In this document: one piece after another, positions 11,461 to 59,777 of the stretch
How positions within the stretch are numbered: the first letter of the stretch is position 1
Layout of the letters: every line of letters begins with the position of its first letter
IMG/VR virus record: IMGVR_UViG_2597489997_000001
Coordinates: 96,001 to 160,000 of that record
Source of the DNA: a virus
Taxonomy: Duplodnaviria > Caudoviricetes
Reading direction: 5' to 3' (one strand)
Length of the DNA stretch: 64,000 nucleotides
Program-made: the position numbers and the translations under genes
Notes under the pieces: generated by a model
What the model saw: the letters and a program-made list of their open reading frames with translations, nothing else
What the model was told of the DNA's origin: nothing
Databases searched by the model: none

Positions 11461-13620
11461 ATGGAACAAAATAACGAATTCCGTTTTGGTATCTCCAAAT
11501 CTGGCGTAGACCTGAAAGCACTGATGACTGGCGTTGTTAGCAACCAGCAGTCCGACGGTACCCTGCGTGGTCTGGTTGGCGCTGAGTCAATGACCGATGG
11601 CCTGAAAGCTATCGAGAAAGGCATGGGCTTCAACCAGAAGAACGCTATCTCTTCTCTGATCGCTGACAGCGGTAAGTTCAACAGCCGCGCTGAAGCACTG
11701 AAAGCAGTTGTAGCTCACGGTGGTATGGAATCATTCTCCATGCAGCTGGATGCTGGTAACGTTGCTCGTCAGAAAGCTGCTACCATTGAACTGAACGCCC
11801 GTTCTAACCGTCAGTGGGATGCTGCTGAAGCTCTGTACCCAACTCTGATCATTCCTTACGATCAAGAAGCTCTGGTACTGCCAATCGATATCGCTGGTGT
11901 TGGTGCTTATAACGCATCTGGTAACGCTAACGAAGCTTTCGAAGATCTGCGTCCAATCGCTTCCGTTCTGGCTGACAGCAAATTCAACGCTGGCGACGAT
12001 CTGAAACTGGTTCCAGTATTGCCTGCTAACCCAACCGACGCTAACGCTGCGATGTTCGTACCGTCTGCTGACTGGGCTCCATGGGATACTACCTATGACG
12101 CAAACGACCTGCTGGGTCGTGAAGCTCATAAAACCAACTTCCTGGCGATCCGCAAGATCAACAACCTGCTGTCCCTGTGCCGTGCTCCAGGCGCGACTGC
12201 ATTTGAGCAGAACGATGAGATCGAAGCATCTTCTATCAAACTGAACCGCATCCTGCTGAAACTGAAAACCAAAGATGGTGAAGGTTTCGTTACTCTGGAC
12301 ACAGCTTCTATGGCTGGTGTTGCAGCCCGTCCGTCTACCGGTACTACTGCTGACGAAAAACGTCAGATCAACTTCGTACTGAACGGCCTGAACGTTGCAA
12401 ACCTGAAAGACAAAGACGGCAAAGCTACCGAGCTGTTCAAGTCTCTGACTGACGCTGGTCTGAAAGTATTCCTGTCTATGGAACTGAGCGCGACTTATCA
12501 TCGTTCTACCCGTAGCTGGTCTCCAACCGTATCTCCAGTTGCAGTTGCATACGTAATCAACAAAGACGGCGACCGTCTGGTAGTTGGTCACAGCAACATG
12601 CCTGCTGATATCGCAACTCTGATCACCGATCAAGCAGTTGAAGCTTCTATCCACGGTGTGGATCTGAAGATGAACCACGCGAACACCAACCGTAGCCGTT
12701 ACGGTACTACTGTTGTTTACGCTAACACCACCAAGTCCTACAACATCCAGCGCCGTCAGCCAATCAGCGTTAAGTACCCAATGCTGAATGATGACAACAA
12801 CGCTGACGTACTGGCAATGCTGGTACAGCAGATGGACATCATGGTTACCCGTAACATGTCTCACGACGCATTCAAAGCTGCTAACCAGCACTTCGCTTAC
12901 GTTTACGACAACAACGGTATGAAGATCGTTAACATCAATGACGACTCTTCTTCTGTACTGCCAGGTCAGCACTTCCTGGGTACCGTGGGCATCGAGTCCG
13001 AGATCGACCTGATCACTGAAGTTTCCACCCTGGATTCTAAAGACACTCTGGCGAACATCGAAGCTGCTCTGGTGAACAAGGTATACGACATCATCACTGG
13101 TCTGCGTGTACGTTCTAACATCTCCGCTCTGAAAGAGCTGGATGGTCGTGAAGAAGCTTACACCATCATCGCTCACGCATCCCTGGCTCCGTTCCTGATG
13201 CGTACTGGTGACTACCGTACCTTCGGTACCAATGTTAAGTTCAAAGTACTCGAAACTAACATCGATTCCGAAGTTGGTCGTATGTGGGTCATTCCTGAGT
13301 CTCAGACTAAGAATGGCGTAGTTGATATCTTCGGCGGCATGGGTATCTGTGTAGCTAAAGAACTGCTGGTAATCGAAGGTTCTGTAAACCAGAGCGATCG
13401 TCAATACCGCATGATCATCACTCAGCCTGCATACCAGCACCACAGCCTGTGCCCAGTAGCTGGCCGTCTGACCATCAAAGACATCGATAAACTGATGGGC
13501 GACGAAGGTCTGATCGCGCTGGTCAACAAACACCTGGTTACCGTTAACGGTAAACTGGAAGGCGCTGCTGGCGGTACCGGTAAAGAAATCGAAGTTGAAA
13601 TCCCAGGCACCAACGGCTAA
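11461..13620 (+). CDS. Major capsid protein precursor
   Basis: 719 aa with extreme high-expression codon bias, propeptide ending at GGME/SF (E90-S91), strong terminator downstream, and synteny with DnaB and the RNAP subunit as for phiKZ gp120. Confidence 0.9.
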   Translation: MEQNNEFRFGISKSGVDLKALMTGVVSNQQSDGTLRGLVGAESMTDGLKAIEKGMGFNQKNAISSLIADSGKFNSRAEALKAVVAHGGMESFSMQLDAGNVARQKAATIELNARSNRQWDAAEALYPTLIIPYDQEALVLPIDIAGVGAYNASGNANEAFEDLRPIASVLADSKFNAGDDLKLVPVLPANPTDANAAMFVPSADWAPWDTTYDANDLLGREAHKTNFLAIRKINNLLSLCRAPGATAFEQNDEIEASSIKLNRILLKLKTKDGEGFVTLDTASMAGVAARPSTGTTADEKRQINFVLNGLNVANLKDKDGKATELFKSLTDAGLKVFLSMELSATYHRSTRSWSPTVSPVAVAYVINKDGDRLVVGHSNMPADIATLITDQAVEASIHGVDLKMNHANTNRSRYGTTVVYANTTKSYNIQRRQPISVKYPMLNDDNNADVLAMLVQQMDIMVTRNMSHDAFKAANQHFAYVYDNNGMKIVNINDDSSSVLPGQHFLGTVGIESEIDLITEVSTLDSKDTLANIEAALVNKVYDIITGLRVRSNISALKELDGREEAYTIIAHASLAPFLMRTGDYRTFGTNVKFKVLETNIDSEVGRMWVIPESQTKNGVVDIFGGMGICVAKELLVIEGSVNQSDRQYRMIITQPAYQHHSLCPVAGRLTIKDIDKLMGDEGLIALVNKHLVTVNGKLEGAAGGTGKEIEVEIPGTNG

Positions 13621-48594: not shown

Positions 48595-48626
48595 CAACGG
48601 GGCTTCGGCCCCATTAAGGAAGAGTG

Positions 48627-49145
48627 ATGCAAAAGTTATTCCCTATCGCTAACAGAAATACCCGCCATCTGTTTATCGATCCACTGTTGAGTAAACCAAG
48701 CTTCGTTGCAGGTGAAGGTTATGTTAGTGGGGAAATGACCAGCTTTATTAAACCAGGTAAAGTTCCTAACCTGGCTGAGCTGTGCCGACCTGAAGATGTG
48801 AAGTTCACAGTAACAGAAGAACCCGATCCAACTACTATGGGTATCAGTGAGATCATGTTCGGCATGTATGACGAAAATAAGGAATGGCGCGTTGTATCCG
48901 TTACCGATCTCGATATTCCATTTGTTGCTGACGGCCCTGCTCGTTCGACAATCGATGGGTGCATGGCAGTCCAACATCCGTTCAAAGAAAAGGGTATGGT
49001 AAATATTCCAATCAGTCTTCTATATGAACGTGGGACTCGTGCGCTGACATTTAAAGAAGTTCCAAATGTCGGTTATGACTCTGGTGTTCCACAAATTCTG
49101 GGCATTAAACTGAACCTGGATTGGCGTGACGCTAAGATCGTTTAA
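48627..49145 (+). CDS. Stand-alone paralogue of an internal major-capsid domain (copy 1)
   Basis: AAGGA SD. Collinear motifs with MCP residues ~182-405, e.g. TSFIKPGKVPNLAELCR vs TNFLAIRKINNLLSLCR and ISLLYERGTR vs LSATYHRSTR. Confidence 0.7.
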   Translation: MQKLFPIANRNTRHLFIDPLLSKPSFVAGEGYVSGEMTSFIKPGKVPNLAELCRPEDVKFTVTEEPDPTTMGISEIMFGMYDENKEWRVVSVTDLDIPFVADGPARSTIDGCMAVQHPFKEKGMVNIPISLLYERGTRALTFKEVPNVGYDSGVPQILGIKLNLDWRDAKIV

Positions 49146-49153
49146 TACATATC

Positions 49154-49191
49154 GATTAAACTTCCTAGGATGATCCCTGGGAGGTTTAATC
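49154..49191 (+). terminator. Hairpin
   Basis: GATTAAACTTCCTAG...CTGGGAGGTTTAATC after the stop codon, preceded by CATA. Confidence 0.55.
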
Positions 49192-49289
49192 CTTGCGGTA
49201 AGGTGATTCATCGATAAAAATCAATCTTTTGTTAAAACACTCTTTATACGTCGCGAAAGCGGTGTGTAAAAAGTAGACCGCCAGTATAT

Positions 49290-49313
49290 TTTAAGCAGAT
49301 ATTATCTTTATGT
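49290..49313 (+). promoter_or_regulatory. Phage early-type promoter motif
   Basis: TTTAAGCAGATATTATCTTTATGT, near-identical to 13727-13750. Confidence 0.65.
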
Positions 49314-49368
49314 CTAAGCGATAGAAATATTTACTGCTCCGATCAATTTACTTATAGGTACTACACAC

Positions 49369-50136
49369 ATGAACAGGTTTATCTTAACCATCTTTCTCTT
49401 AATGGCGAGTACTCTGGTTTACGGGTCCGTAGGTGCTAATCCTGACGACTATACCAGAACAGTTGTAATGAAGCGTTTCGATGCAGTCAAGCATGACTTC
49501 TATGAAGCGTCCAAAGCAACAGGAATGGATATGGGTGATCTTGTTGCCATTGCCAGTATTGAATCAACATTAAATAAGACCGCCAAGAATAAAGCTCCCG
49601 GAACGTCCAGTGGACTATTGGGTTACACCAATGGTACTTGGCAATCGGACCGCAAAGCTTATCATAAAGATCTTGGTCTCTCAGCTAATGTTAGTAAAGG
49701 TAACGTCAGAGCCAATTTACTGATTGGTGGAAAAAGCTTAGTCGAAACAGAAAGATTTCTCATAGAAAATTCGCATTTGACTGTAGAGACAGTCAGAAAA
49801 GGCGACCTTTATATGAGTCATTTCTTAGGAACTACAGGAGCACTCCGCGTCATTAACTCGAATAGTTACACGCCGATGTCTAAACTCGTTAGTATTTCTA
49901 AGGCCAATCGAGTCCACTTTGTCAAGCCAAATGGTCAGGTGCGTACAGCACGTGAGTTCCGCTTGTACATGGACATGTTGGTGAAACGTGAACGCGCTTT
50001 TTACGCAGAGGAGATCCAGAAATATCAACTGGCTAAACTTACCGAACAACTTCCTTCTTCTGTAGCGGACTCCATCAATGACGTCATGTCAATCGCTACC
50101 AATAACACATCCAAGTATGTAGGTTGGTCGCTGTAA
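49369..50136 (+). CDS. Lytic transglycosylase (phiKZ gp144-like SLT domain) with N-terminal signal peptide
   Basis: IASIES (catalytic Glu), G....T.GTW and LY+.HF.G..GA motifs; N-terminus MNRFILTIFLLMASTLVYG. Confidence 0.75.
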   Translation: MNRFILTIFLLMASTLVYGSVGANPDDYTRTVVMKRFDAVKHDFYEASKATGMDMGDLVAIASIESTLNKTAKNKAPGTSSGLLGYTNGTWQSDRKAYHKDLGLSANVSKGNVRANLLIGGKSLVETERFLIENSHLTVETVRKGDLYMSHFLGTTGALRVINSNSYTPMSKLVSISKANRVHFVKPNGQVRTAREFRLYMDMLVKRERAFYAEEIQKYQLAKLTEQLPSSVADSINDVMSIATNNTSKYVGWSL

Positions 50137-50203
50137 AAACTTAATATCTACGCACTGTGTGATGTTGTGAGAGGAACAATTTTTCATAAAGAGGTTAGCT
50201 CAT

Positions 50204-50467
50204 ATGAGCATTAGACAAATTAACTGCACTTTCGACAGGAATGGTATTTTATCTCCGGTTGCTAGTTCGGGTCCAAACACAACAGTCGCATTAGTCAATA
50301 TCCAGGGAGACCAGGTTACTGGTAAGACTGGAACAATCAGTTACGCTGGTAGTGTTCGAGCATTCTTGACATTTGACCATCTCGGTTTACGAGTTGAATC
50401 ATACACGTTAACGGTGCAAGACTATGCGACTCAGGTTTCTGTTGAAAATATCGTACGCGTTATTTAA
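50204..50467 (+). CDS. Small beta-rich hypothetical protein
   Basis: 87 aa, GAGGT SD, followed by a hairpin. Confidence 0.65.
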   Translation: MSIRQINCTFDRNGILSPVASSGPNTTVALVNIQGDQVTGKTGTISYAGSVRAFLTFDHLGLRVESYTLTVQDYATQVSVENIVRVI

Positions 50468-50476
50468 TATCAAAAC

Positions 50477-50516
50477 TTAACTTGGGATGGGTAACTCCGT
50501 CCCAAGTTAACCTATG
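50477..50516 (+). terminator. Hairpin followed by TATG
   Basis: TTAACTTGGGATGG-gtaact-CCGTCCCAAGTTAA-cc-TATG. Confidence 0.6.
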
Positions 50517-50532
50517 CTGTTCGTGAGGTATA

Positions 50533-50910
50533 ATGGAGAAACGTAATAAACCTGCATCTATTTTCATTGAACATCCGAAAGGATTTAGAATGGATATTTT
50601 TGTTGACTTCACTGGAGATAGTACACTAACAGAAAGAGAAACAATAGCAAGAATTGCAAGAGTCGAAACGTGCCTGAGTAAAAATGGAATGGGTGTCGTA
50701 AAGGACTCATTTAATATCATGTTCGATTCGTATTACATGCTCATGACTGCGATCAAAGAGCGATACATTGAAGATATTACATTGCCTAATTTCGATACCT
50801 TTACCAAAGAAGATATTGAAGAAGCAATAGTCTTCCTTATTAAATCAGATAAAGCTTGTTCCTTATTCGATGAGATATTCGATGACGACCAGGCAGCAAT
50901 CGTACACTAA
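50533..50910 (+). CDS. Hypothetical protein
   Basis: 125 aa, GAGGT SD. Confidence 0.65.
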   Translation: MEKRNKPASIFIEHPKGFRMDIFVDFTGDSTLTERETIARIARVETCLSKNGMGVVKDSFNIMFDSYYMLMTAIKERYIEDITLPNFDTFTKEDIEEAIVFLIKSDKACSLFDEIFDDDQAAIVH

Positions 50911-50925
50911 CCATAGAGAAATAGA

Positions 50926-51675
50926 ATGCAAACTTTTGAAACGGTATTGTTCCACGAGAAGGATTGGAAAATAACGCTGGTCACTGAAAGAACGCCAGTG
51001 GATAAAGTAACCTCCTTCTTCAAAGTTCATTTCGTTGCAGGTGATGTCCCCCGTGTGGCTAAACGCTGTTGGTCTTATGACGGCTATCTCCACACAAAGA
51101 AAGTTTTTGCTGATCACGTAACACACCCACGTCGTTACACCCCTTTCGATATGCATTGGAAGTTAGATCGTGACTACGGGGAAGATTTCAAAGAGATGAT
51201 GGTTAGTCTAATTGAGAACCCGTTCCTCATGGCTAAGATTTGCGAACACAACCGCAAGACCAAACATCAACCCCATCTATTAAAAGGACACACTTACGTT
51301 AATAAGGAAATGGACGAACATCTCTTTGACGTATTCGATGAGCCTGACGTGGGTATTAAGCTGTGGTTTAAACTGAAGTCCGAGAAAGCCAAAGCTAAGT
51401 TAGAAGGATGCATCCAGTTCGATGGTGAGAATTGTGAATTGGATATTGACCGCTTCTTTGAAAGTCAGACGCCTCTTCTGAATCCTACTGCTGTTCAGAA
51501 TGCAGTAATGGGTTCGATTGTTGATGTCATGGCTCGTGCTCATCCTGATGAGCTTGATCGTAAAGATATCGTGGCAGAGATTGTCAAGTGGTTTGAAGAA
51601 AGCCGCTTCGGTCTCAATTTCTTATTAAATAAACTGAATAAGGAATACCCTGTACGCACTGCGACAAAATGTTAA
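50926..51675 (+). CDS. Hypothetical protein
   Basis: 249-aa ORF in operon context. Confidence 0.65.
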   Translation: MQTFETVLFHEKDWKITLVTERTPVDKVTSFFKVHFVAGDVPRVAKRCWSYDGYLHTKKVFADHVTHPRRYTPFDMHWKLDRDYGEDFKEMMVSLIENPFLMAKICEHNRKTKHQPHLLKGHTYVNKEMDEHLFDVFDEPDVGIKLWFKLKSEKAKAKLEGCIQFDGENCELDIDRFFESQTPLLNPTAVQNAVMGSIVDVMARAHPDELDRKDIVAEIVKWFEESRFGLNFLLNKLNKEYPVRTATKC

Positions 51676-51685
51676 AGGAGACGTA

Positions 51686-53659
51686 ATGTCTAATAAGGTA
51701 AAACGCTTGCTCGAGTTACAGGCTCAGATTAAGTATCATGACTACATGTACTTTGATCAGGATAAGCCGGTGATCTCTGATGCCAAGTATGACGAGATGG
51801 TTGCTGAATATCAGGAACTCCTCGAAGAACACCCTGAATTTGATCCAGCGAAACATACTGTAGGATTTGTGGCTCCAGATCCCTCAATGGAAACCGTTAT
51901 GATTGTCGAGCCGATGCTATCAATTGGCAAACGCAAGACTAAAGCCGATTTCCAGAAATGGATTACTCAGAATGTTTCAACCGATGCGATCTACGAAGAC
52001 AAGCTGGATGGGATGGCTCTGCGCATCGTTTACCATTATGGTGAGCTTATGTGCATCCATACTCGTGGTAATGGAACTGTGGGAGCAGTTCTAAGTCATC
52101 GCCGTCATTTGCTGTTGAATGTCCCTGACTATATTGCCGAAGATAAGGAAGAACCCGTAACTGAGTATACTGGGGAAGCGTTATGCATGTATGCTGATTT
52201 TGAAGCGTATGCAAAACGCCATGAGTTAGATATTAAAGATATCGATACTCGTTCCACGGTGTCTGGGTTAATGAAACGTCAGAAGTCTTCAGATCGTGAT
52301 GATCTTCCTATTTACTTCAAGTGTTATAACGCGAGCAGCAATGTTCGTAATCGTTACGGGTTTTATACCCAGCTACGTCAACACTTTATCGCTTCAGGTT
52401 TCGACTTACCTAAGTTGTTGTCACCAACCGCTGTAGAAGCTCTCCTGGACCTTCCAAGCAAACCAATCGATACTTATCCTGTCGACGGTATTGTGGCTAA
52501 GGACGACGATTTGAGGAGCTGGGATAAGGAACAGGATGCGCAGTACTATTCTTATGCAATCTGTTACAAATATCCAACCTTGGCTCTGCAAAGTAAAGTC
52601 ACGGGTATTGATTGGTCTATCGCTAATAGTGGTGAGTTGATTGGTACATTGATGTACGAGCCTGTTGACTATGACGGAACTAAATTGTCCCGTTGTAAGT
52701 TAGACTATGCTGCAAGCTATTTCGAGAAAGGCTTGCGTATCAACTCCATTATCAGCGTAACGAAATCAAATGAAATTGTACCCAAGCTTGTGTCTTTGGT
52801 TGAGCCTGGCACTGGTCTCAAGCTTTCATATCCTGAGTTCTGTCCATTCTGTAATAAACCTGTTCGTATGGATGATGACAATAAGGTTGCTTTCTGCGTA
52901 AACCCTGACTGTGAAGGTCAGTTGTTGAAACAGTTAACCCGCCTGTCTGAAATCGATGCGTTCGATATTAAAGGTTTGGGTCCCAAACGTATTCAAGCAT
53001 TGTTAGACCATGGATTCTTATCCAATCCGTCTGACCTGTTTGAGTTAACCGAAGAAGACCTTATCAATGCAGGAATTGATCTTGCCACATCAGGTTCCAT
53101 AATGGAACAGATTGGTAAACTGGATGACAAAGACATCAGCCGTTGGCTGGTTGCTTTAGCTATCCCTGAGTTAGGTGTTGGTCGTGCTATTGACATCTCT
53201 AACTTAGCTGCAACGAACGGAATGAATGATGGATTGAAGTTCAGTAACCTGGATGATTTCATTCGTATCATGACTGACGGCATGTTCCTTAAGAATACGT
53301 TTGGATTGGATGGATTGGTTATCGGAATGCATATCAAAACGCATGAAGAAGAGATCCGTAAATTCCTATCCCACTATACGTTTAACAAGGAACGCACGGG
53401 CATCGCTCAGGGAGTCCCTGTATCGATCTCTGGCGGTTGGCCGGTGCTTACACGGGGATTATTAGCGGAAGGTCTTGCTAACGCCGGATACGTGCTCTCA
53501 GACACTGTCTCGCAGTCAGCCAAGGTGTTACTCACCGGAACTAAACCTAGTCCTGGTAAGATAGCCAAAGCTAATCGCTGGGGTATTCCGATTATTAACA
53601 TTACGTCGGTATATGACATTGCAACCATTGCCGTATTGATTGCTAATGCAAATAAATAA
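51686..53659 (+). CDS. ligA: NAD-dependent DNA ligase
   Basis: N-terminal HDY.YF..D.P.ISD..YD domain, adenylation motif EDKLDG, TRGNG, DGIV.K, zinc finger CPFC...C....C, HhH IKGLG and C-terminal BRCT. Confidence 0.92.
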   Translation: MSNKVKRLLELQAQIKYHDYMYFDQDKPVISDAKYDEMVAEYQELLEEHPEFDPAKHTVGFVAPDPSMETVMIVEPMLSIGKRKTKADFQKWITQNVSTDAIYEDKLDGMALRIVYHYGELMCIHTRGNGTVGAVLSHRRHLLLNVPDYIAEDKEEPVTEYTGEALCMYADFEAYAKRHELDIKDIDTRSTVSGLMKRQKSSDRDDLPIYFKCYNASSNVRNRYGFYTQLRQHFIASGFDLPKLLSPTAVEALLDLPSKPIDTYPVDGIVAKDDDLRSWDKEQDAQYYSYAICYKYPTLALQSKVTGIDWSIANSGELIGTLMYEPVDYDGTKLSRCKLDYAASYFEKGLRINSIISVTKSNEIVPKLVSLVEPGTGLKLSYPEFCPFCNKPVRMDDDNKVAFCVNPDCEGQLLKQLTRLSEIDAFDIKGLGPKRIQALLDHGFLSNPSDLFELTEEDLINAGIDLATSGSIMEQIGKLDDKDISRWLVALAIPELGVGRAIDISNLAATNGMNDGLKFSNLDDFIRIMTDGMFLKNTFGLDGLVIGMHIKTHEEEIRKFLSHYTFNKERTGIAQGVPVSISGGWPVLTRGLLAEGLANAGYVLSDTVSQSAKVLLTGTKPSPGKIAKANRWGIPIINITSVYDIATIAVLIANANK

Positions 53660-53668
53660 GGTGGGCAA

Positions 53669-54106
53669 GTGATCTATCCAACCTGTAACCCAAGAACTGA
53701 ACCATATCTCATTAAGGGGGTGGCCCCAGTTCAGCAAAACGGACATGAACTCTGTTTCTTTAAACCTGGCATTATTAACAACGCCAAAGAACTATTCATT
53801 GCTCCGTATGTCCCGGACTTTGAAGACATCACTATTGACTCTGAATCTCTAACCCCTGTCAGATTACTGATGGAAGGTATCGACCCCAATGGTAATAGTG
53901 TACGGTTCTTTGCTGGTAAGGAAGATGATAAAACGCATTGTTCTTATTTGTTAGGTAACCTAGAATTCGAGTATGAAGTGGTTCTCACTCATACCGACAA
54001 ATCAGATACTCTTTCTATAGAGTTAAAGGTAAAGAACTGGACCTCAACTGGAACACTTAAAGCGTTGAGTGTGATCGGTGTGGCTATCGCCGCAAAGCTT
54101 AAGTAA
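53669..54106 (+). CDS. Stand-alone paralogue of an internal major-capsid domain (copy 2, shortest)
   Basis: AAGGTGG SD and GTG start. INNAKELFIAPYVPDFE vs MCP INNLLSLCRAPGATAFE; ends SVIGVAI vs MCP SIHGVDL. Confidence 0.6.
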   Translation: MIYPTCNPRTEPYLIKGVAPVQQNGHELCFFKPGIINNAKELFIAPYVPDFEDITIDSESLTPVRLLMEGIDPNGNSVRFFAGKEDDKTHCSYLLGNLEFEYEVVLTHTDKSDTLSIELKVKNWTSTGTLKALSVIGVAIAAKLK

Positions 54107-54121
54107 CAAGCAAATTAAATA

Positions 54122-54151
54122 AGAACTCTACCCGTCATTGGGTAGAGTTCT
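54122..54151 (+). terminator. Intrinsic terminator
   Basis: AGAACTCTACCC-gtcatt-GGGTAGAGTTCT followed by a T-rich tract. Confidence 0.75.
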
Positions 54152-54177
54152 ATTCTTTCTTTTATTAAGGAGTTTTT

Positions 54178-54486
54178 ATGTTCCGTAAACATTTGGTTAT
54201 CATCCGTGGTCAATATGCTGGCATCGCTCATGGTGCTCAGAAAGTTATTGATAAAATGCAGGGACAGGACGATATCTTTCTGATTGAAGAATCAGACCAG
54301 TGTTTCACCGTAGTTGCAGGTGACGAAGATTTCAACCGCTTCGCTAAGATGTTCATGGGTGAATGGCAGGTCAGTGTTGTTAAGACTGGTCAGTTACCTG
54401 ATTACACGAACGTTCTGGTGTTCGGTAAGGTCATGGACGGCGCTCTGCAACAACGCGCTCAAGACATCGCTAAGAAAATGTTCTAA
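54178..54486 (+). CDS. Hypothetical protein
   Basis: 102 aa, AAGGAG SD. Confidence 0.7.
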   Translation: MFRKHLVIIRGQYAGIAHGAQKVIDKMQGQDDIFLIEESDQCFTVVAGDEDFNRFAKMFMGEWQVSVVKTGQLPDYTNVLVFGKVMDGALQQRAQDIAKKMF

Positions 54487-54495
54487 GGGGTAATC

Positions 54496-55116
54496 ATGGA
54501 AAAACATTACGATTTACAGCGTCGTGGTAATGACGGTTGGATTCTTAATCGTGGTGACCATCAGATCCAAATCTTCCGTCTTCGTGAAGAAATCCAGATA
54601 GGTCCTCATTTTAAGAAGGAACTCTGCGGGGTAGCTTTCCGATATCAAGATTCATCAAAGAACGATCCACAGGAATCTATAACCCTTAGTCTGAAAACAA
54701 TCGATCCGGAACATGATAATACAGATCACTCCCTTATTTATATGACCAGGAAGATATTAGAGCAGGTTCACCTGGGAACCTTTGGTCAGGAATGTTCACG
54801 TTTAAATGAGCGCACTGAGTTTCTGGAATATATCCTGAAGTTCTTGGGCGAAGATCCAAACGTCTATATCGACCGACCTATTCGTATCCCCATTGATACC
54901 CCTATTGGTAAACAGTGGTTGGTAAATTTGGAGGATGAACGATACTACGCAACTCGTAGTTATAGTCCAAGTGACGATTTATATACCACGACCATCCATC
55001 TGACAAATACGAAGTTTCAAATTGGTTCAGGTAAGTATAAAAACCAATCCATGACCTTCATGAGTAAAACTGCCGTCCCGCTGGACATTAATGCGGTAGT
55101 TCTGGTGTTTAAATAA
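54496..55116 (+). CDS. Hypothetical protein
   Basis: 206 aa, AAGGGG SD. Confidence 0.7.
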   Translation: MEKHYDLQRRGNDGWILNRGDHQIQIFRLREEIQIGPHFKKELCGVAFRYQDSSKNDPQESITLSLKTIDPEHDNTDHSLIYMTRKILEQVHLGTFGQECSRLNERTEFLEYILKFLGEDPNVYIDRPIRIPIDTPIGKQWLVNLEDERYYATRSYSPSDDLYTTTIHLTNTKFQIGSGKYKNQSMTFMSKTAVPLDINAVVLVFK

Positions 55117-55123
55117 TTAGGAT

Positions 55124-55149
55124 CCTCTGAGGGCAAGTGCCCTCAGAGG
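55124..55149 (+). terminator. Hairpin
   Basis: CCTCTGAGGGC-aagt-GCCCTCAGAGG. Confidence 0.6.
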
Positions 55150-55176
55150 TCCATTAAACTAAAGGAGTTTTATTTC

Positions 55177-55944
55177 ATGGGTGTTTTAAGAAAATTTGAT
55201 CCAGAATTAGACCAATACTTCAGTAACGATGATCCCAAATATGTTATTAGGGATTTAATATATGAATCTGAGTTAGGGAAGACCAGAGTACAATGGACCA
55301 GGGGTTTGAATACGGTAAATGCCCCATATTACGATCAAGATGGAAACCAGGTTAAATTAATCGGCGACGATTCAATCAACATTAGTGTCGTGGGGCCTGG
55401 CTCTAGTATCATGTACGCCCAGTATCCAAGTGATGATTTGGATCCAAGTATCCCCACCTTGGAATCGGTGATTAACAAAGCGTATGAGTACCTAGTTCTT
55501 AGAACAGTACAGCCCCAACCTATATCCGAATCTGATCCAGATATCGAATGGATGGCCGGTTTAACTGTGGAGAACTTACTCCTGATGATAGACGATCTTC
55601 AAATTAACATATCTGATTTTTCCACAAAGAACCCGGTCATAATCATGGGGCCCAAATGGAGACCAGTTAAAGAGTGTGGATTAAACCACTCTAAAGAGTA
55701 TTATGCTTATAATAAGGACGGATCCAATAGATACTCAGTTAGAATGAACGTCACTGATGGGTTTATAAATTATTATGTATCACAGTACAAAGAAGTGACA
55801 ATCAAGCATGGTGATTGGGTTGTCGGTGTTATTTATGAACCGACAGAGACTAAAATTCATAAAGTTCCTCTTGCCGAGGCTCATGCCATCACCACAAAGC
55901 AAATAGGAATTTTATTTAATGATGATGTTGAACAAGTGTCTTAA
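55177..55944 (+). CDS. Hypothetical protein
   Basis: 255 aa, AAGGAG SD; visibly more AT-rich codons than core genes. Confidence 0.7.
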   Translation: MGVLRKFDPELDQYFSNDDPKYVIRDLIYESELGKTRVQWTRGLNTVNAPYYDQDGNQVKLIGDDSINISVVGPGSSIMYAQYPSDDLDPSIPTLESVINKAYEYLVLRTVQPQPISESDPDIEWMAGLTVENLLLMIDDLQINISDFSTKNPVIIMGPKWRPVKECGLNHSKEYYAYNKDGSNRYSVRMNVTDGFINYYVSQYKEVTIKHGDWVVGVIYEPTETKIHKVPLAEAHAITTKQIGILFNDDVEQVS

Positions 55945-55955
55945 CTAATATAAAA

Positions 55956-55984
55956 GAGAGGTCCGTTTGGACCTCTCCTCTATG
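55956..55984 (+). terminator. Hairpin followed by TATG and T-rich tract
   Basis: GAGAGGTCC-gttt-GGACCTCTC. Confidence 0.55.
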
Positions 55985-56094
55985 TTTGTTTGAAAAAATA
56001 GGGTTCTACCTATAATAAGGTAGATAATGTTTATTAATCTGGAGATTTCTTATGAAGAGTGAACTTCCCTGTTCCTCAGTAATTTAAGGAGGGG

Positions 56095-56640
56095 ATGATG
56101 GATTGGCATATTTATACTGATGGTTCACGTATTGGTGATTCGACCACTGATGGTGGACCTGGCGGATGGGCATGGGTCTGTACCTATGGCGATATCCGAG
56201 CCGAAGATAGCTGTGGGTTCTTCAAGACCACGAACAACCGTATGGAGATATTGGCTGTAGTAGAAGCTCTTTCTCAATTACAGGAAAGTTCGTCTGTCAA
56301 GATTTATACCGACAGCCAATACACAATTGATGGTGCTACAAAGTGGGTATGGGGCTGGATCAAAAATGGATGGCAGAGAAAGACCCAATCTGGTGGTTTA
56401 GAAGATGTTAAGAACTGTGACCTGTTCAAACGTCTTCATGAACTTACCCGCTTTCACAAAGTCGAATTTATCAAGGTTAAAGCTCACTCCGGTATTCCTG
56501 ATAACGAACGCTGTGATGTGTTAGCTAAATCTGCTGCCGCTAACCCTACCAAAATCGATGAGGGATTCACTCCTCGTCCTGCTGGTGAGAAGACAGGCGG
56601 TTATCGACCTTGGGGTGGTAAACCTCACTGGAAACGTTAA
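56095..56640 (+). CDS. rnhA: Ribonuclease HI
   Basis: IYTDGS, GPGGW, TTNNRME, YTDSQY, VKN.DL, VKAHSG and NERCD.LA motifs. Confidence 0.95.
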   Translation: MMDWHIYTDGSRIGDSTTDGGPGGWAWVCTYGDIRAEDSCGFFKTTNNRMEILAVVEALSQLQESSSVKIYTDSQYTIDGATKWVWGWIKNGWQRKTQSGGLEDVKNCDLFKRLHELTRFHKVEFIKVKAHSGIPDNERCDVLAKSAAANPTKIDEGFTPRPAGEKTGGYRPWGGKPHWKR

Positions 56641-56646
56641 ACTAAT

Positions 56647-56670
56647 CCCACTATTTCGGTAGTGGGTTTT
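56647..56670 (+). terminator. Intrinsic terminator
   Basis: CCCACTAT-ttcg-GTAGTGGG followed by TTTT. Confidence 0.75.
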
Positions 56671-56694
56671 CTTTCTTATATAAGGTAGAAACAA

Positions 56695-57307
56695 ATGTAC
56701 GAACAAGTTCGGTTGATCCCTGTATTCAACTCAACTACTGAGGATGTATTTGTTCCAACAATGGATTATCCTCCGTTCGAGTTTACTTACGGTAACAACG
56801 ATATCCTGGAGCGTCCCGATCTATTTTTCAAGTTACCTGAAAGTTGATGCCAATATCAACCTGCGTCATTTGGTATCCCTTGGTTCTGAGAAATGGGGCG
56901 TCAATGATCATATTGATTTGAGCCGTCTTTACATCAAAGGTGTTCTGATCAAAGTAACCAACGGTGATAAAGAAGAAGTATTGGAGCTGGATGGTCTGTT
57001 CGGCGTTGCTGGCACTGGTTTCCTCCCAGCTATCCATTCAAGTCATCAGGTGCGCAGAGCTTATCTGAGTATGAAGCATCTTGCAGCACGTTGTTTCAAA
57101 CGTCCTGACCGTTATCCCCCAACGATCTTCGGTAATGAAGAAGCTCCTAACATCACCTTCGAGTTAGGTCTCTGTTATGATGATCAACAGGGTGTTGTTG
57201 AGACCACCATTCACTCTGCAATGAGTAGCGTCAAGTCAGCTACCGTTAAAGTGATCGGATACATTCTGGATATTGAACACAAGTCTACGGACCTGAACCT
57301 TATTTAA
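56695..57307 (+). CDS. Stand-alone paralogue of an internal major-capsid domain (copy 3), interrupted by a +1 frameshift at 56824-56828
   Basis: True start ATG 56695 with AAGGT SD (50-aa ORF to 56847), continuing in the +1 frame to 57307. The joined product aligns with MCP 181-410 with no gap across the junction. Confidence 0.75.
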
Positions 57308-57344: not shown

Positions 57345-59777
57345 ATGCAACTTGTAACTTGTGCGTTCCCTGGAACTGGTAAGTCTACCATTTCTAACAA
57401 CGCAGAACAATACGGGCTTATCAAAGCGCACGTCTATTATGATGACAGAGAAGGCGTTTGTGTCAGTCTCTTAAACTCTGATAAAGTTCCCGTATTTGAC
57501 TCGGACAGTTCAATCTTTCCGAAAGAAAACTTTCCGAGCAATTATGTAGAACACATCAAGGGACTCCTTCGAGATTTCCCCGAATGTGTTATCATGGTAT
57601 CAAGCCACGACAATGTCCGTGAGGCATTACGTGAAGCTGGTATCGACTATATCCTTGTTTATCCACAACGTGAACTCAAGGGTGATTACCTCGAACGCTA
57701 TGAAGGCCGTGGGTCTCCAGAACCGTTCATTAAACTGATGGATGATAAATGGAATGATTTCATTGACTCTTGTGAGTCGGATCCTTCCACATCCAAACGT
57801 GTACTATCCGAAGGGGAATATCTCGTGGATAAAATTGAAGAGTTGAAGAAGTTTTGGCCTGCTAAGAAAGTAGACGGGAATGAAGCTTTCCCAACTGCTG
57901 TCATTTCAGGTACCGAGTCAATTGGCGATATCGTCAGTGATGGTGAAGGTAATGCAGTAGCTGTCTGGGGTCAGAATGGTCTGGAACCATTACCTGCTGA
58001 TGACGGTGTTACCACTGGTGATGTCATCATCGACGGTGAAACTGGGCAGGTAGTTGGTACAGTAACTGAGGTTGAAGTAGAAGCCGAAGCTAAACCTGGC
58101 CAACCTGGTGTTACTGTAGAAGTAGAAACTGAAGTTCAGCCAGCTCCTGGCGTTTCTGCGGAACAAGTAGTTGAAGCAGTTGTAGCCGCTACTCCGTGCG
58201 AACCAGACAACGTTGATGTTGAAGTTAAACAAGACGGTACTGTTGTGGTGGAAGCTTCTGAAGTTATGCCTGCGGGCGAAGCTTCTGAAGTTGTTGCGGA
58301 AGTTGTTGGTGCTCAAGCTGATGCTCCAGAAACTGTAGTTGTTCAGCCTGCTGATGTAGTTGTTGAAGCAGAAGGTAGTTTTAACCCAACTGCTGCGATC
58401 TTCGCTGCTGCTCTGGGTGATAACCCTGCTCCTGAACCAACTGTGGCTCCTGGTCCTGCCATTGTTGATCTGGCAGAACTGAATGGTCCTGATACTCAGG
58501 TAGTCGTTGCTGCTGAAGAACCAACTGTAGCTGCCGTTGTCGTTGATGACGGTACTCTGACCTCCGAGGTTGTTAGCGTTCAGGCTGATCCTTCTGTTGC
58601 TCCTGTTTCTGGCGAAGTCATTGTTGACGGCCAAGAAGACGCAGGCGGTGAAGTGACTGTTGACGTCGATCCTAAAACCGGCGTAGTTGAAGTTGAAACC
58701 GCAGAAGGTACTGTTACTGTGACCCAAGAAGAAGTTAAAGTTGACGGTGCTGACATCGTTGTTACTGGTGCAGTTGAAGGCGACGACCTTGTTCAGACCG
58801 ATGCTGATCGTGCTGACCTGATTGAGCTGAAGCTGGACATGCAGAACGATATCGATGCTATCGAGCCTATCGTAGCTATGGGTAAAACGGAAGAGCATGC
58901 TGGTAATGAAGCATTTGCAGCCGGTTCCGAAATCTTAAACAAAGCAGCTGCTGAAGCCAAAGCAACTTACGGCATCGAAATGGAACCTACCCTAGCAGGT
59001 CTGGAAGGTTTCCTGGAAGGATTGAAAGGTGCAGTGGGTAAAATTACTGCCGCTCTGAAATCCAAGCCAACTAAACAGGATCTCTCTATCGTTAAGAAAT
59101 ATCTTTACGAGAATGAGAAAGCTGCTGCGGTTTATTCCAGTGCTGATTGGCAAGGTAAGCAAACCTTCATCGAAGGCGGTAACGTCACTGTACAAACCCC
59201 TGCTTTGCTGAGTAATGCTACCACTCCTTCTGAAGTGGCTGGTGTGGTAAACTCCATGTTGAAGAATGCTGAAGATGCTTTCAGTAAACATGTTAAGAAC
59301 GAAACTGAACGTCTTAAAGCCGGTGTGAAAGCTTTCAACGCTATTCGCAACCTGGGTAAAGATGCTCCGGTATCAGAGCTTGAAAAGCATCTACCTATCA
59401 AACCAGAAAAACTGACCTCGGGCGTAGCAGACGCTGGTCTGGATAAAGTAGAAGTTGGTTTGTCTGGCAAAGAGCTTCCAGTTCTGACTGCTGACAAAGT
59501 AAAAGAAGTTGTTAAGATCATGGATACCATTACTGATACGCTGGTTAAGTTTATCCGTATGGAAGAAAGCACTTTCGATCTCTATCCTGGTGATGAAGTC
59601 GAACGTTCTGCCTTTATCGAAGCGCATGAAAATACCGGTGCTGTTAAAGAACTGCTCAGCGTGATCGAGTACCGTTCAAGCCCAGTGTCCTTCACTGCTA
59701 TCGACAAAGCACTCCATGAAAAACTGCTTCCAATTGCACAGTTCTTGGAAAGCTGGATCCTCAAATCAGTTAAATAA
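57345..59777 (+). CDS. Fusion of P-loop kinase-like domain, acidic V/E/A/P-rich linker and head-protein domain
   Basis: AFPGTGKST Walker A and FDSDSS at the N-terminus; many G-x-E sites; C-terminal ~290 aa paralogous to the next gene. Confidence 0.7.
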   Translation: MQLVTCAFPGTGKSTISNNAEQYGLIKAHVYYDDREGVCVSLLNSDKVPVFDSDSSIFPKENFPSNYVEHIKGLLRDFPECVIMVSSHDNVREALREAGIDYILVYPQRELKGDYLERYEGRGSPEPFIKLMDDKWNDFIDSCESDPSTSKRVLSEGEYLVDKIEELKKFWPAKKVDGNEAFPTAVISGTESIGDIVSDGEGNAVAVWGQNGLEPLPADDGVTTGDVIIDGETGQVVGTVTEVEVEAEAKPGQPGVTVEVETEVQPAPGVSAEQVVEAVVAATPCEPDNVDVEVKQDGTVVVEASEVMPAGEASEVVAEVVGAQADAPETVVVQPADVVVEAEGSFNPTAAIFAAALGDNPAPEPTVAPGPAIVDLAELNGPDTQVVVAAEEPTVAAVVVDDGTLTSEVVSVQADPSVAPVSGEVIVDGQEDAGGEVTVDVDPKTGVVEVETAEGTVTVTQEEVKVDGADIVVTGAVEGDDLVQTDADRADLIELKLDMQNDIDAIEPIVAMGKTEEHAGNEAFAAGSEILNKAAAEAKATYGIEMEPTLAGLEGFLEGLKGAVGKITAALKSKPTKQDLSIVKKYLYENEKAAAVYSSADWQGKQTFIEGGNVTVQTPALLSNATTPSEVAGVVNSMLKNAEDAFSKHVKNETERLKAGVKAFNAIRNLGKDAPVSELEKHLPIKPEKLTSGVADAGLDKVEVGLSGKELPVLTADKVKEVVKIMDTITDTLVKFIRMEESTFDLYPGDEVERSAFIEAHENTGAVKELLSVIEYRSSPVSFTAIDKALHEKLLPIAQFLESWILKSVK

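Follow-up and report, generated by a model that had tools for sequence, protein, structure and literature searches.

We report here three small genes, called A, B and C, from a 64,000-nucleotide window of a Caudoviricetes genome (bases 96001-160000 of the 284,757-bp IMG/VR virus record IMGVR_UViG_2597489997_000001). They almost certainly encode stand-alone paralogs of one domain, the insertion (I) domain, of the phage's own major capsid protein (MCP): anciently separated and fast-evolving products of partial MCP gene duplication, which carry neither the capsid core nor the propeptide. The genes had been picked out in a first-pass annotation made from the letters of the window, in whose coordinates all positions below are given. 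The principal features are as follows.

11461-13620, + strand: MCP gene, phiKZ type, 719 amino acids (matches to PF25620, phrog_3231 and phiKZ gp120)
12001-12714, + strand: part of the MCP gene coding for the I domain, residues ~181-418, assigned as parent segment of the small genes (hhalign, hidden Markov model (HMM), alignment with gp120)
48627-49145, + strand: gene A, 172 amino acids, assigned as stand-alone I-domain paralog, subfamily A (BLASTP, hhalign, HMM, AlphaFold2 model)
53669-54106, + strand: gene B, 145 amino acids, assigned as the shortest and most diverged I-domain paralog (hhalign through the family, AlphaFold2 model, VIA)
56695-57307, + strand: gene C, assigned as I-domain paralog, subfamily C, its frame broken in the record (open reading frames (ORFs), BLASTP, the relative P0027, hhalign)

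Homology of the small proteins to the MCP I domain

The MCP of the window matches Pfam PF25620 at E 2.8e-187 and phrog_3231 at E 1.6e-183, and phiKZ gp120 (PDB 8Y6V) reaches it by phmmer at E 2.4e-16. Its nearest counterpart in a cultured phage is that of Pantoea phage Survivor (82.5%); further neighbours, at 74-79%, are found in Edwardsiella pEt-SU, Klebsiella N1M2, Serratia Yubaba and Sureiya, Shewanella SXP01, Kosakonia Kc263 and Erwinia AH04.

Profiles of the small proteins link this protein to the small genes. An HMM of 58 small relatives, including neither B nor any MCP, was used without filters to search every one of the 2594 stop-to-stop ORFs in the genome of 284,757 bp. After A and the two pieces of C, its next match was the MCP (E 3.2e-25), in one domain that aligns HMM positions 5-188 of 189 with MCP residues 182-412, both end strands included. 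By hhalign, 50 small proteins matched 11 MCPs with 99.4% probability (E 5.1e-22) over 190 columns, MCP 181-418. The collinear, end-to-end match to MCP residues ~181-410 proposed in the first-pass annotation is thus recovered by both methods, and the segment is the I domain proper. The small-protein profile also matched the MCP in 8/8 other phiKZ-like phages, with E from 1e-18 to 1e-28. The start strand, core and end strand described earlier as common to the three proteins and the MCP fall on the conserved columns of the family, which read L-x-P at the start, then T-x-F-L-K-x-G-x-x-P-N-L-x-x-L-C, D-E-I and Y-x-R-x-T, and h-x-G-V-x-L...N-x-N-R in the closing strand (MCP IHGVDLKMNHANTNRS).

The limits of the shared segment were placed on the phiKZ structure. 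According to the available text of PMC11297242, gp120 comprises an N-arm (164-204), I-domain linkers (205-247 and 473-484) and the I domain (248-472), followed by the P and A domains. Profile alignment of the window's MCP lineage with gp120 puts LKLVPV at gp120 251-256 and the closing strand IHGVDL..NTNRS at gp120 453-468; the small proteins therefore correspond to the whole I domain, alone. A broader segment, made of N-arm, linker and I domain, was considered and dropped, since the gp120 alignment and the ranges matched by VIA show the I domain only. The HK97 core (P and A domains, N-arm) is absent: the proteins are 145-203 amino acids long, their alignments end at the I-domain borders, and the structure models of A and B match gp120 only within 250-468. 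This agrees with the earlier observation that the small genes lack the rest of the capsid protein and its propeptide.

Sequence identity to the MCP segment is low, only about 15-27% for A, B and C, and the strong divergence of the three from one another that had been reported is reflected in direct BLASTP comparisons among them, which gave no significant match (E >= 1.6). PHROGs and Pfam scans of A, B and C returned no match. PF25620 as curated (gathering cut-off 27 bits) had no match at E <= 1 to A, B or either piece of C; relatives scored 11-17 bits with it (P0005 at E 0.0021, P0021 and P0022 at E 0.08).

Gene A and gene C can each be tied to the MCP with their own subfamilies. The best BLASTP match of A to the MCP joins residues 38-106 to MCP 225-290 (E 2e-4), and hhalign of family A against the MCP gave 95.2% (E 2.5e-8). 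For C, residues 40-105 matched MCP 233-301 (E 0.001), and family C reached 97.7% (E 1.4e-12). Database searches brought up 19 relatives of A, at 36-69% identity, and one of C. A search for the locus with the A-family profile found 4 IMG/VR contigs; the same profile run against PDB sequences gave chance matches only, and gp120 was not found.

Gene B is linked through the family. Its best BLASTP match to the MCP (B 23-69, MCP 220-267) has E 0.065, and hhalign of B directly against the MCP gave a probability of 7%. Against the family of 50 proteins the value was 96.0% (E 4.5e-9) over 71 columns, which cover the first 71 of B, and the 58-sequence HMM reached B at E 0.017. An HMM of subfamilies A, C and D (D is introduced below), applied with hmmsearch --max to all ORFs of the genome, found the MCP at 3.4e-9 and did not find B. 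No match was obtained between B and C by hhalign, with B alone as query in the phage collection, or as a lead in the ESM Atlas. Jackhmmer started from B recruited nothing below 1e-3, and its 12 best sub-threshold matches were all family members or MCP, ranking above any of the 2594 background ORFs. One ortholog of B only was found (P0025, 50% identity), and none in pEt-SU and Survivor.

Structure prediction and superposition, which had been suggested as checks together with profile comparison, led to the same domain. The AlphaFold2 model of A, based on the family A alignment, has a predicted local distance difference test score (pLDDT) of 76.9 and a predicted template modelling score (pTM) of 0.75, with residues 1-40 poorly defined. 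Foldseek ranked the phiKp24 MCP (E 8e-5, TMq 0.67) first, with two phiKZ MCP chains completing its top three, within E 8e-5 to 3.5e-3 and TMq 0.57-0.67; all others had E > 0.1. VIA aligned model A on gp120 250-468 with Z 13.5 and a root-mean-square deviation (rmsd) of 3.2 over 154 residues, followed by the phiKp24 MCP (Z 12.0) and the capsid protein of Staphylococcus jumbo phage S6 (Z 9.4); the next match had Z 4.2. The model of B was built from B and its single ortholog only, to keep the family alignment from dictating the fold, and its scores are moderate (pLDDT 66.8, pTM 0.63). No MCP was among its Foldseek matches. A VIA search independent of Foldseek, over 48,161 PDB chains, placed gp120 251-463 first (Z 7.9, rmsd 3.4, 136/145 residues), ahead of the phiKp24 MCP (Z 7.5) and the S6 capsid protein (Z 4.7); the first unrelated chain had Z 3.2.

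The three genes lie on the + strand at the coordinates given earlier, each with a ribosome site, and one correction concerns gene C. It begins at ATG 56695, behind a ribosome site, and its 613-nt span is divided between two frames, a break that the first-pass annotation had read through without comment. Frame 1 ends in a stop at 56847, and what follows is read in the frame of the ORF 56744-57307. The shift is due to a single base.

56822-56822, + strand: extra T shifting the frame of gene C (comparison of contigs, P0027)

This T is missing in 2/2 metagenome contigs that cover the site, which come from two runs of two studies: X1 (598 nt, 18 differences from the window, 97%) and X3 (198 nt, 3 differences, 98.5%). 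The closest relative of C, P0027, is an intact protein of 203 amino acids, 84% identical, which reads ERPDHFSSYLK at the place of the extra T, and the window read without that T agrees with it. As P0027 is intact and both near-identical contigs lack the base, the sequences indicate that C is a normal gene in its lineage and that the break is either an error of the record or a private mutation. A precomputed PF25620.2 label carried by P0027 did not reappear in a Pfam scan at E <= 1.

Distribution, descent and rate of change

The extent of the family was assessed by a profile search of 1.84 billion representatives with a cut-off of E <= 1e-3. The 57 matches include 47 small-protein clusters (145-230 amino acids) and 4 MCPs, matched at residues ~190-370; the others are a 379-residue two-copy fusion, a 325-residue protein, a 44-residue fragment and 3 long proteins. 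The fusion, P0030, consists of two diverged family copies head to tail, and P0056 (325 amino acids) carries the domain behind an unrelated N-terminal part of 130 residues. The long proteins P0062 (2279 amino acids), P0078 (1692) and P0079 (753) show 5-10 repeated short matches at profile positions ~51-108, which are probably repeat noise.

The carriers form one clade of phages of 250-285 kb, with 1-3 stand-alone copies each. These counts come from six-frame profile searches and depend on the prefilter, which missed the MCP and B in the run with subfamilies A, C and D. Three copies are present in this phage (A, B, C) and in pEt-SU, where a fourth subfamily, D, stands in tandem with A in addition to C. 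Two are present in Survivor (A and C) and in the IMG/VR genome G003 (an A-type copy and a copy of 156 amino acids in tandem), and one each in G002, G004 and Kc263. SXP01 has at least 2, one of them unannotated: the ORF at PV593634.1 146226-146777 is a family member 59% identical to P0058 and lies directly upstream of an A-type copy, forming a tandem pair. A search of relatives for short ORFs and copy-number variation had been recommended, and the number does vary among the carriers counted. In Aeromonas pAEv1810 and LAh10, Vibrio VP4B, Klebsiella phiKp_32, Erwinia RisingSun and Pseudomonas EL, the profile search matched the phages' own MCPs and found no stand-alone copy.

A maximum-likelihood tree was computed from 70 sequences, 56 small proteins or parts of them and 14 MCP I-domain segments. 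A, B and C fall in three separate deep groups. The A clade has support 100/99, the C-type proteins group with the MCPs (100/99), and B is placed with weak support among D-like proteins, on a branch 2.9 long. Three proteins of 224-230 amino acids, P0065, P0073 and P0076, lie inside the MCP clade beside the MCPs of EL and RisingSun (100/99), and P0076, along its entire length, shares 37% identity with the EL MCP. Because these three nest within the MCP clade, free I domains had, judging from the tree, at least two independent origins, those of P0065, P0073 and P0076 being the younger. The same nesting, together with the restriction of other free forms to one clade and the presence of the I domain in every MCP tested, suggests that descent ran from the MCP to the stand-alone proteins.

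The small genes are under purifying selection. The proportions of non-synonymous and synonymous differences (pN/pS) are 0.10/0.65 for gene A between G002 and G003, 0.28/0.69 for gene A between the window and pEt-SU, and 0.38/0.74 for gene C between Survivor and pEt-SU; the ratios are rough, the synonymous sites being near saturation. They also evolve several times faster than the MCP: between the window and pEt-SU, identity falls from 80% in the MCP to 62% in A and 28% in C. In this pair the pS of the MCP is 0.43 and that of gene A 0.69; the lower value for the MCP could reflect a different history, or constraint on the codons of a gene with high expression. The idea that the genes are decaying, functionless relics of partial MCP duplications draws on the frameshift of C in the record and the single known relative of B; it is highly improbable in view of a pN far below pS in every pair tested (the selection test that had been put forward for it), of 47 clusters of consistent length, of frames intact in all relatives examined, and of the frameshifting base missing in both near-identical contigs.

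Full-text searches of the literature agree with the first-pass annotation, whose author knew of no description of such a family: neither the searches nor the available text of the phiKZ capsid and atlas papers, the Goslar preprint and the Kc263 paper gave an account of free paralogs of the I domain or of phage decoys made from a capsid domain. Earlier annotation has left one trace only, in the Kc263 homolog, whose GenBank product name is 'putative capsid protein'.

Genomic setting and candidate roles

The three genes stand among replication and repair genes, A after an SbcC-like gene, B after a ligase gene and C after an RNase H gene, and these positions are conserved in relatives. Three hairpins were identified next to them.

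48595-48616, strand not assigned: G+C-rich hairpin between the SbcC-like gene and gene A (sequence)
54122-54151, + strand: terminator-like hairpin, 13 pairs and a T run, closing the ligase-B unit (sequence)
56647-56666, + strand: terminator-like hairpin between the RNase H gene and gene C (sequence)

Gene A comes directly after the SbcC-like gene, past its hairpin, with the ribosome site AAGGAAG, and gene C lies downstream of both the RNase H gene and the terminator-like hairpin. Gene B has a GTG start 9 nt past the ligase stop codon and the ribosome site AAGGTGG upstream; since no terminator occupies this 9-nt gap, B is probably co-transcribed with the ligase.

As to function, our preferred reading, which we hold tentatively, is that A, B and C bind MCP, procapsids or capsids through the native contacts of the I domain. 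It starts from the part that this domain plays within the capsid. According to the available parts of PMC11297242 and the Goslar preprint, the I domain rests on the junction of the A and P domains and on the I-linker of a neighbouring subunit, and it links capsomers by pairing, across the local two-fold axes, with a second I domain. Because the MCP I domain sits on its neighbour and pairs across two-folds in this way, a free I domain might engage the same surfaces. Such a protein could serve to decorate or cement the capsid surface, in a role that the phage can do without, or it could modulate assembly. Arg296 is one of four gp120 residues proposed for the contact in the I-domain dimer, in the accessible text of PMC11297242. 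The best-conserved motif of the family, T-x-F-L-K-x-G-x-x-P-N-L-x-x-L-C (MCP 225-241), corresponds in a low-identity alignment to gp120 ~291-310, a stretch that includes Arg296. The conserved motif thus appears to overlap the proposed I-I contact.

Several observations weigh against binding to the capsid. The genes lie 35-45 kb from the capsid gene in their replication and repair surroundings, and a late structural protein would not usually share a transcript with the ligase, as B probably does. Copies vary from 1 to 3 among carriers and none was found in the six other phiKZ-like phages, among them the phiKZ relative EL, a distribution that would also fit a conflict gene. The fast change of A and C relative to the MCP between the window and pEt-SU points in the same direction. 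The capsid structures of phiKZ and Goslar, as presented in the available text of PMC11297242 and of the Goslar preprint, contain no free I-domain protein (the genomes of these two phages were outside the search). The literature search brought up no virion proteome for any carrier phage, and mass spectrometry is absent from the available text of the Kc263 paper. A role in conflict and a dispensable decoration would account equally well for fast divergence, varying copy number and a position among replication genes.

A second explanation is that the family is a neofunctionalised beta-sandwich that has taken on a task away from the capsid, such as the binding of some host or phage factor in the course of replication. 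The conserved positions after SbcC, ligase and RNase H are in its favour, as are the probable joint transcription of B with the ligase and the very low identity to the MCP. The best-conserved columns of the family are, however, those common with the MCP I domain, so that MCP-related constraint persists, and no family match to any other activity came from PHROGs, Pfam or the ESM Atlas. We regard this explanation as unlikely.

It is likewise unlikely, in our estimate, that these are conflict proteins made early with the replication genes, which would titrate capsid sensors or poison rival lattices, the subfamilies being an arms-race repertoire. CapRel and Lit are capsid-sensing host systems that recognise the MCP, and free I domains could soak up such sensors of newly made MCP, the first of the roles offered in the first-pass annotation. 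The proteins copy exactly the MCP domain that is most exposed, they diverge fast and differ in number between relatives, the body of gene A is replaced in one relative by 528 unlike letters (see below), and B is probably expressed with the ligase and not with late genes. A decoy should nevertheless resemble the MCP surface that it mimics, whereas A, B and C retain about 15-27% identity and the MCP is 80% conserved across the same phages; moreover, the literature search found no capsid sensor for these hosts or for phiKZ-type capsids. Such a decoy function is quite improbable.

The other form of conflict would be directed at co-infecting relatives, as a weapon or for superinfection exclusion, with I domains docking on the rival MCP as dominant-negative subunits that poison its lattice. 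Fast divergence and patchy distribution suit this proposal, a genome with several diverged subfamilies could aim them at different competitors, and genes for competition between phages are known in phiKZ-like phages (available text of PMC11620839). A weapon must however spare the phage's own MCP, and yet all subfamilies keep motifs common with it. We consider this proposal more doubtful still.

Comparison with known systems and side observations

The closest known counterpart is the I domain of phiKZ-type MCPs (gp120, 8Y6V; phiKp24 MCP, 8BFL; PF25620), which A, B and C resemble in fold and by sequence homology over the whole domain; the end motifs and the T-x-F-L-K..P-N-L..L-C segment are common to both. 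Unlike the MCP I domain, the proteins described here are separate products of 145-203 amino acids with their own start and stop, without N-arm, linkers, P and A domains or propeptide. T4 gp24, the vertex paralog of gp23, is likewise an extra, diverged copy of capsid sequence that arose by duplication. It is a full HK97-fold subunit placed in the lattice, whereas the small proteins hold the insertion domain only and cannot form lattice positions. The triggers of capsid-sensing systems (CapRel, Lit with Gol) also concern parts of the MCP recognised inside the infected cell; a literature search for a phage-encoded free capsid domain acting as decoy found none. Small and variable accessory proteins on the outside of the MCP lattice are described for phiKZ (gp244, gp35) and Goslar (gp146, the 'latch', and gp77) in the available parts of PMC11297242 and the Goslar preprint. 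Unlike A, B and C, these decoration proteins are not described there as MCP-derived, and the likeness rests on the role considered likeliest here.

Insertion domains supply much of the glue between subunits in large HK97-fold capsids, and one clade of jumbo phages also keeps the I domain as 1-3 free, rapidly evolving genes, which bears on how such domains were gained or exchanged. Should the proteins decorate or regulate capsids, they would mark a direct route between an MCP domain and an accessory capsid protein, in one direction or the other; an action within the cell would make them the first mimics of a capsid domain to be used in phage conflicts. Cultured carriers exist (pEt-SU with pETSU_087, 088 and 096, N1M2, Survivor with XCN28251 and XCN28259, Kc263 with QYN79947, SXP01, AH04, Yubaba), so the question can be taken to the bench.

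Two further observations concern the surroundings of the genes. Downstream of C, the window codes at 57345-59777 for a protein of 810 amino acids with a P-loop-like N-terminus, a match to phrog_4182 and a long acidic middle part rich in V, E, A and T. The label 'protease' on the Survivor homolog of this gene was set aside, PHROGs giving it no support. In a metagenomic relative (run X2), the body of gene A (48638-49134) is swapped for 528 unlike letters between conserved flanks. A second stretch of ~1 kb, 54931-55981, which contains a 255-residue ORF at 55177-55944, is replaced in the same relative, again with conserved flanks. By comparison of X2 with the window, the body of gene A and the stretch 54931-55981 are local hot spots of replacement.

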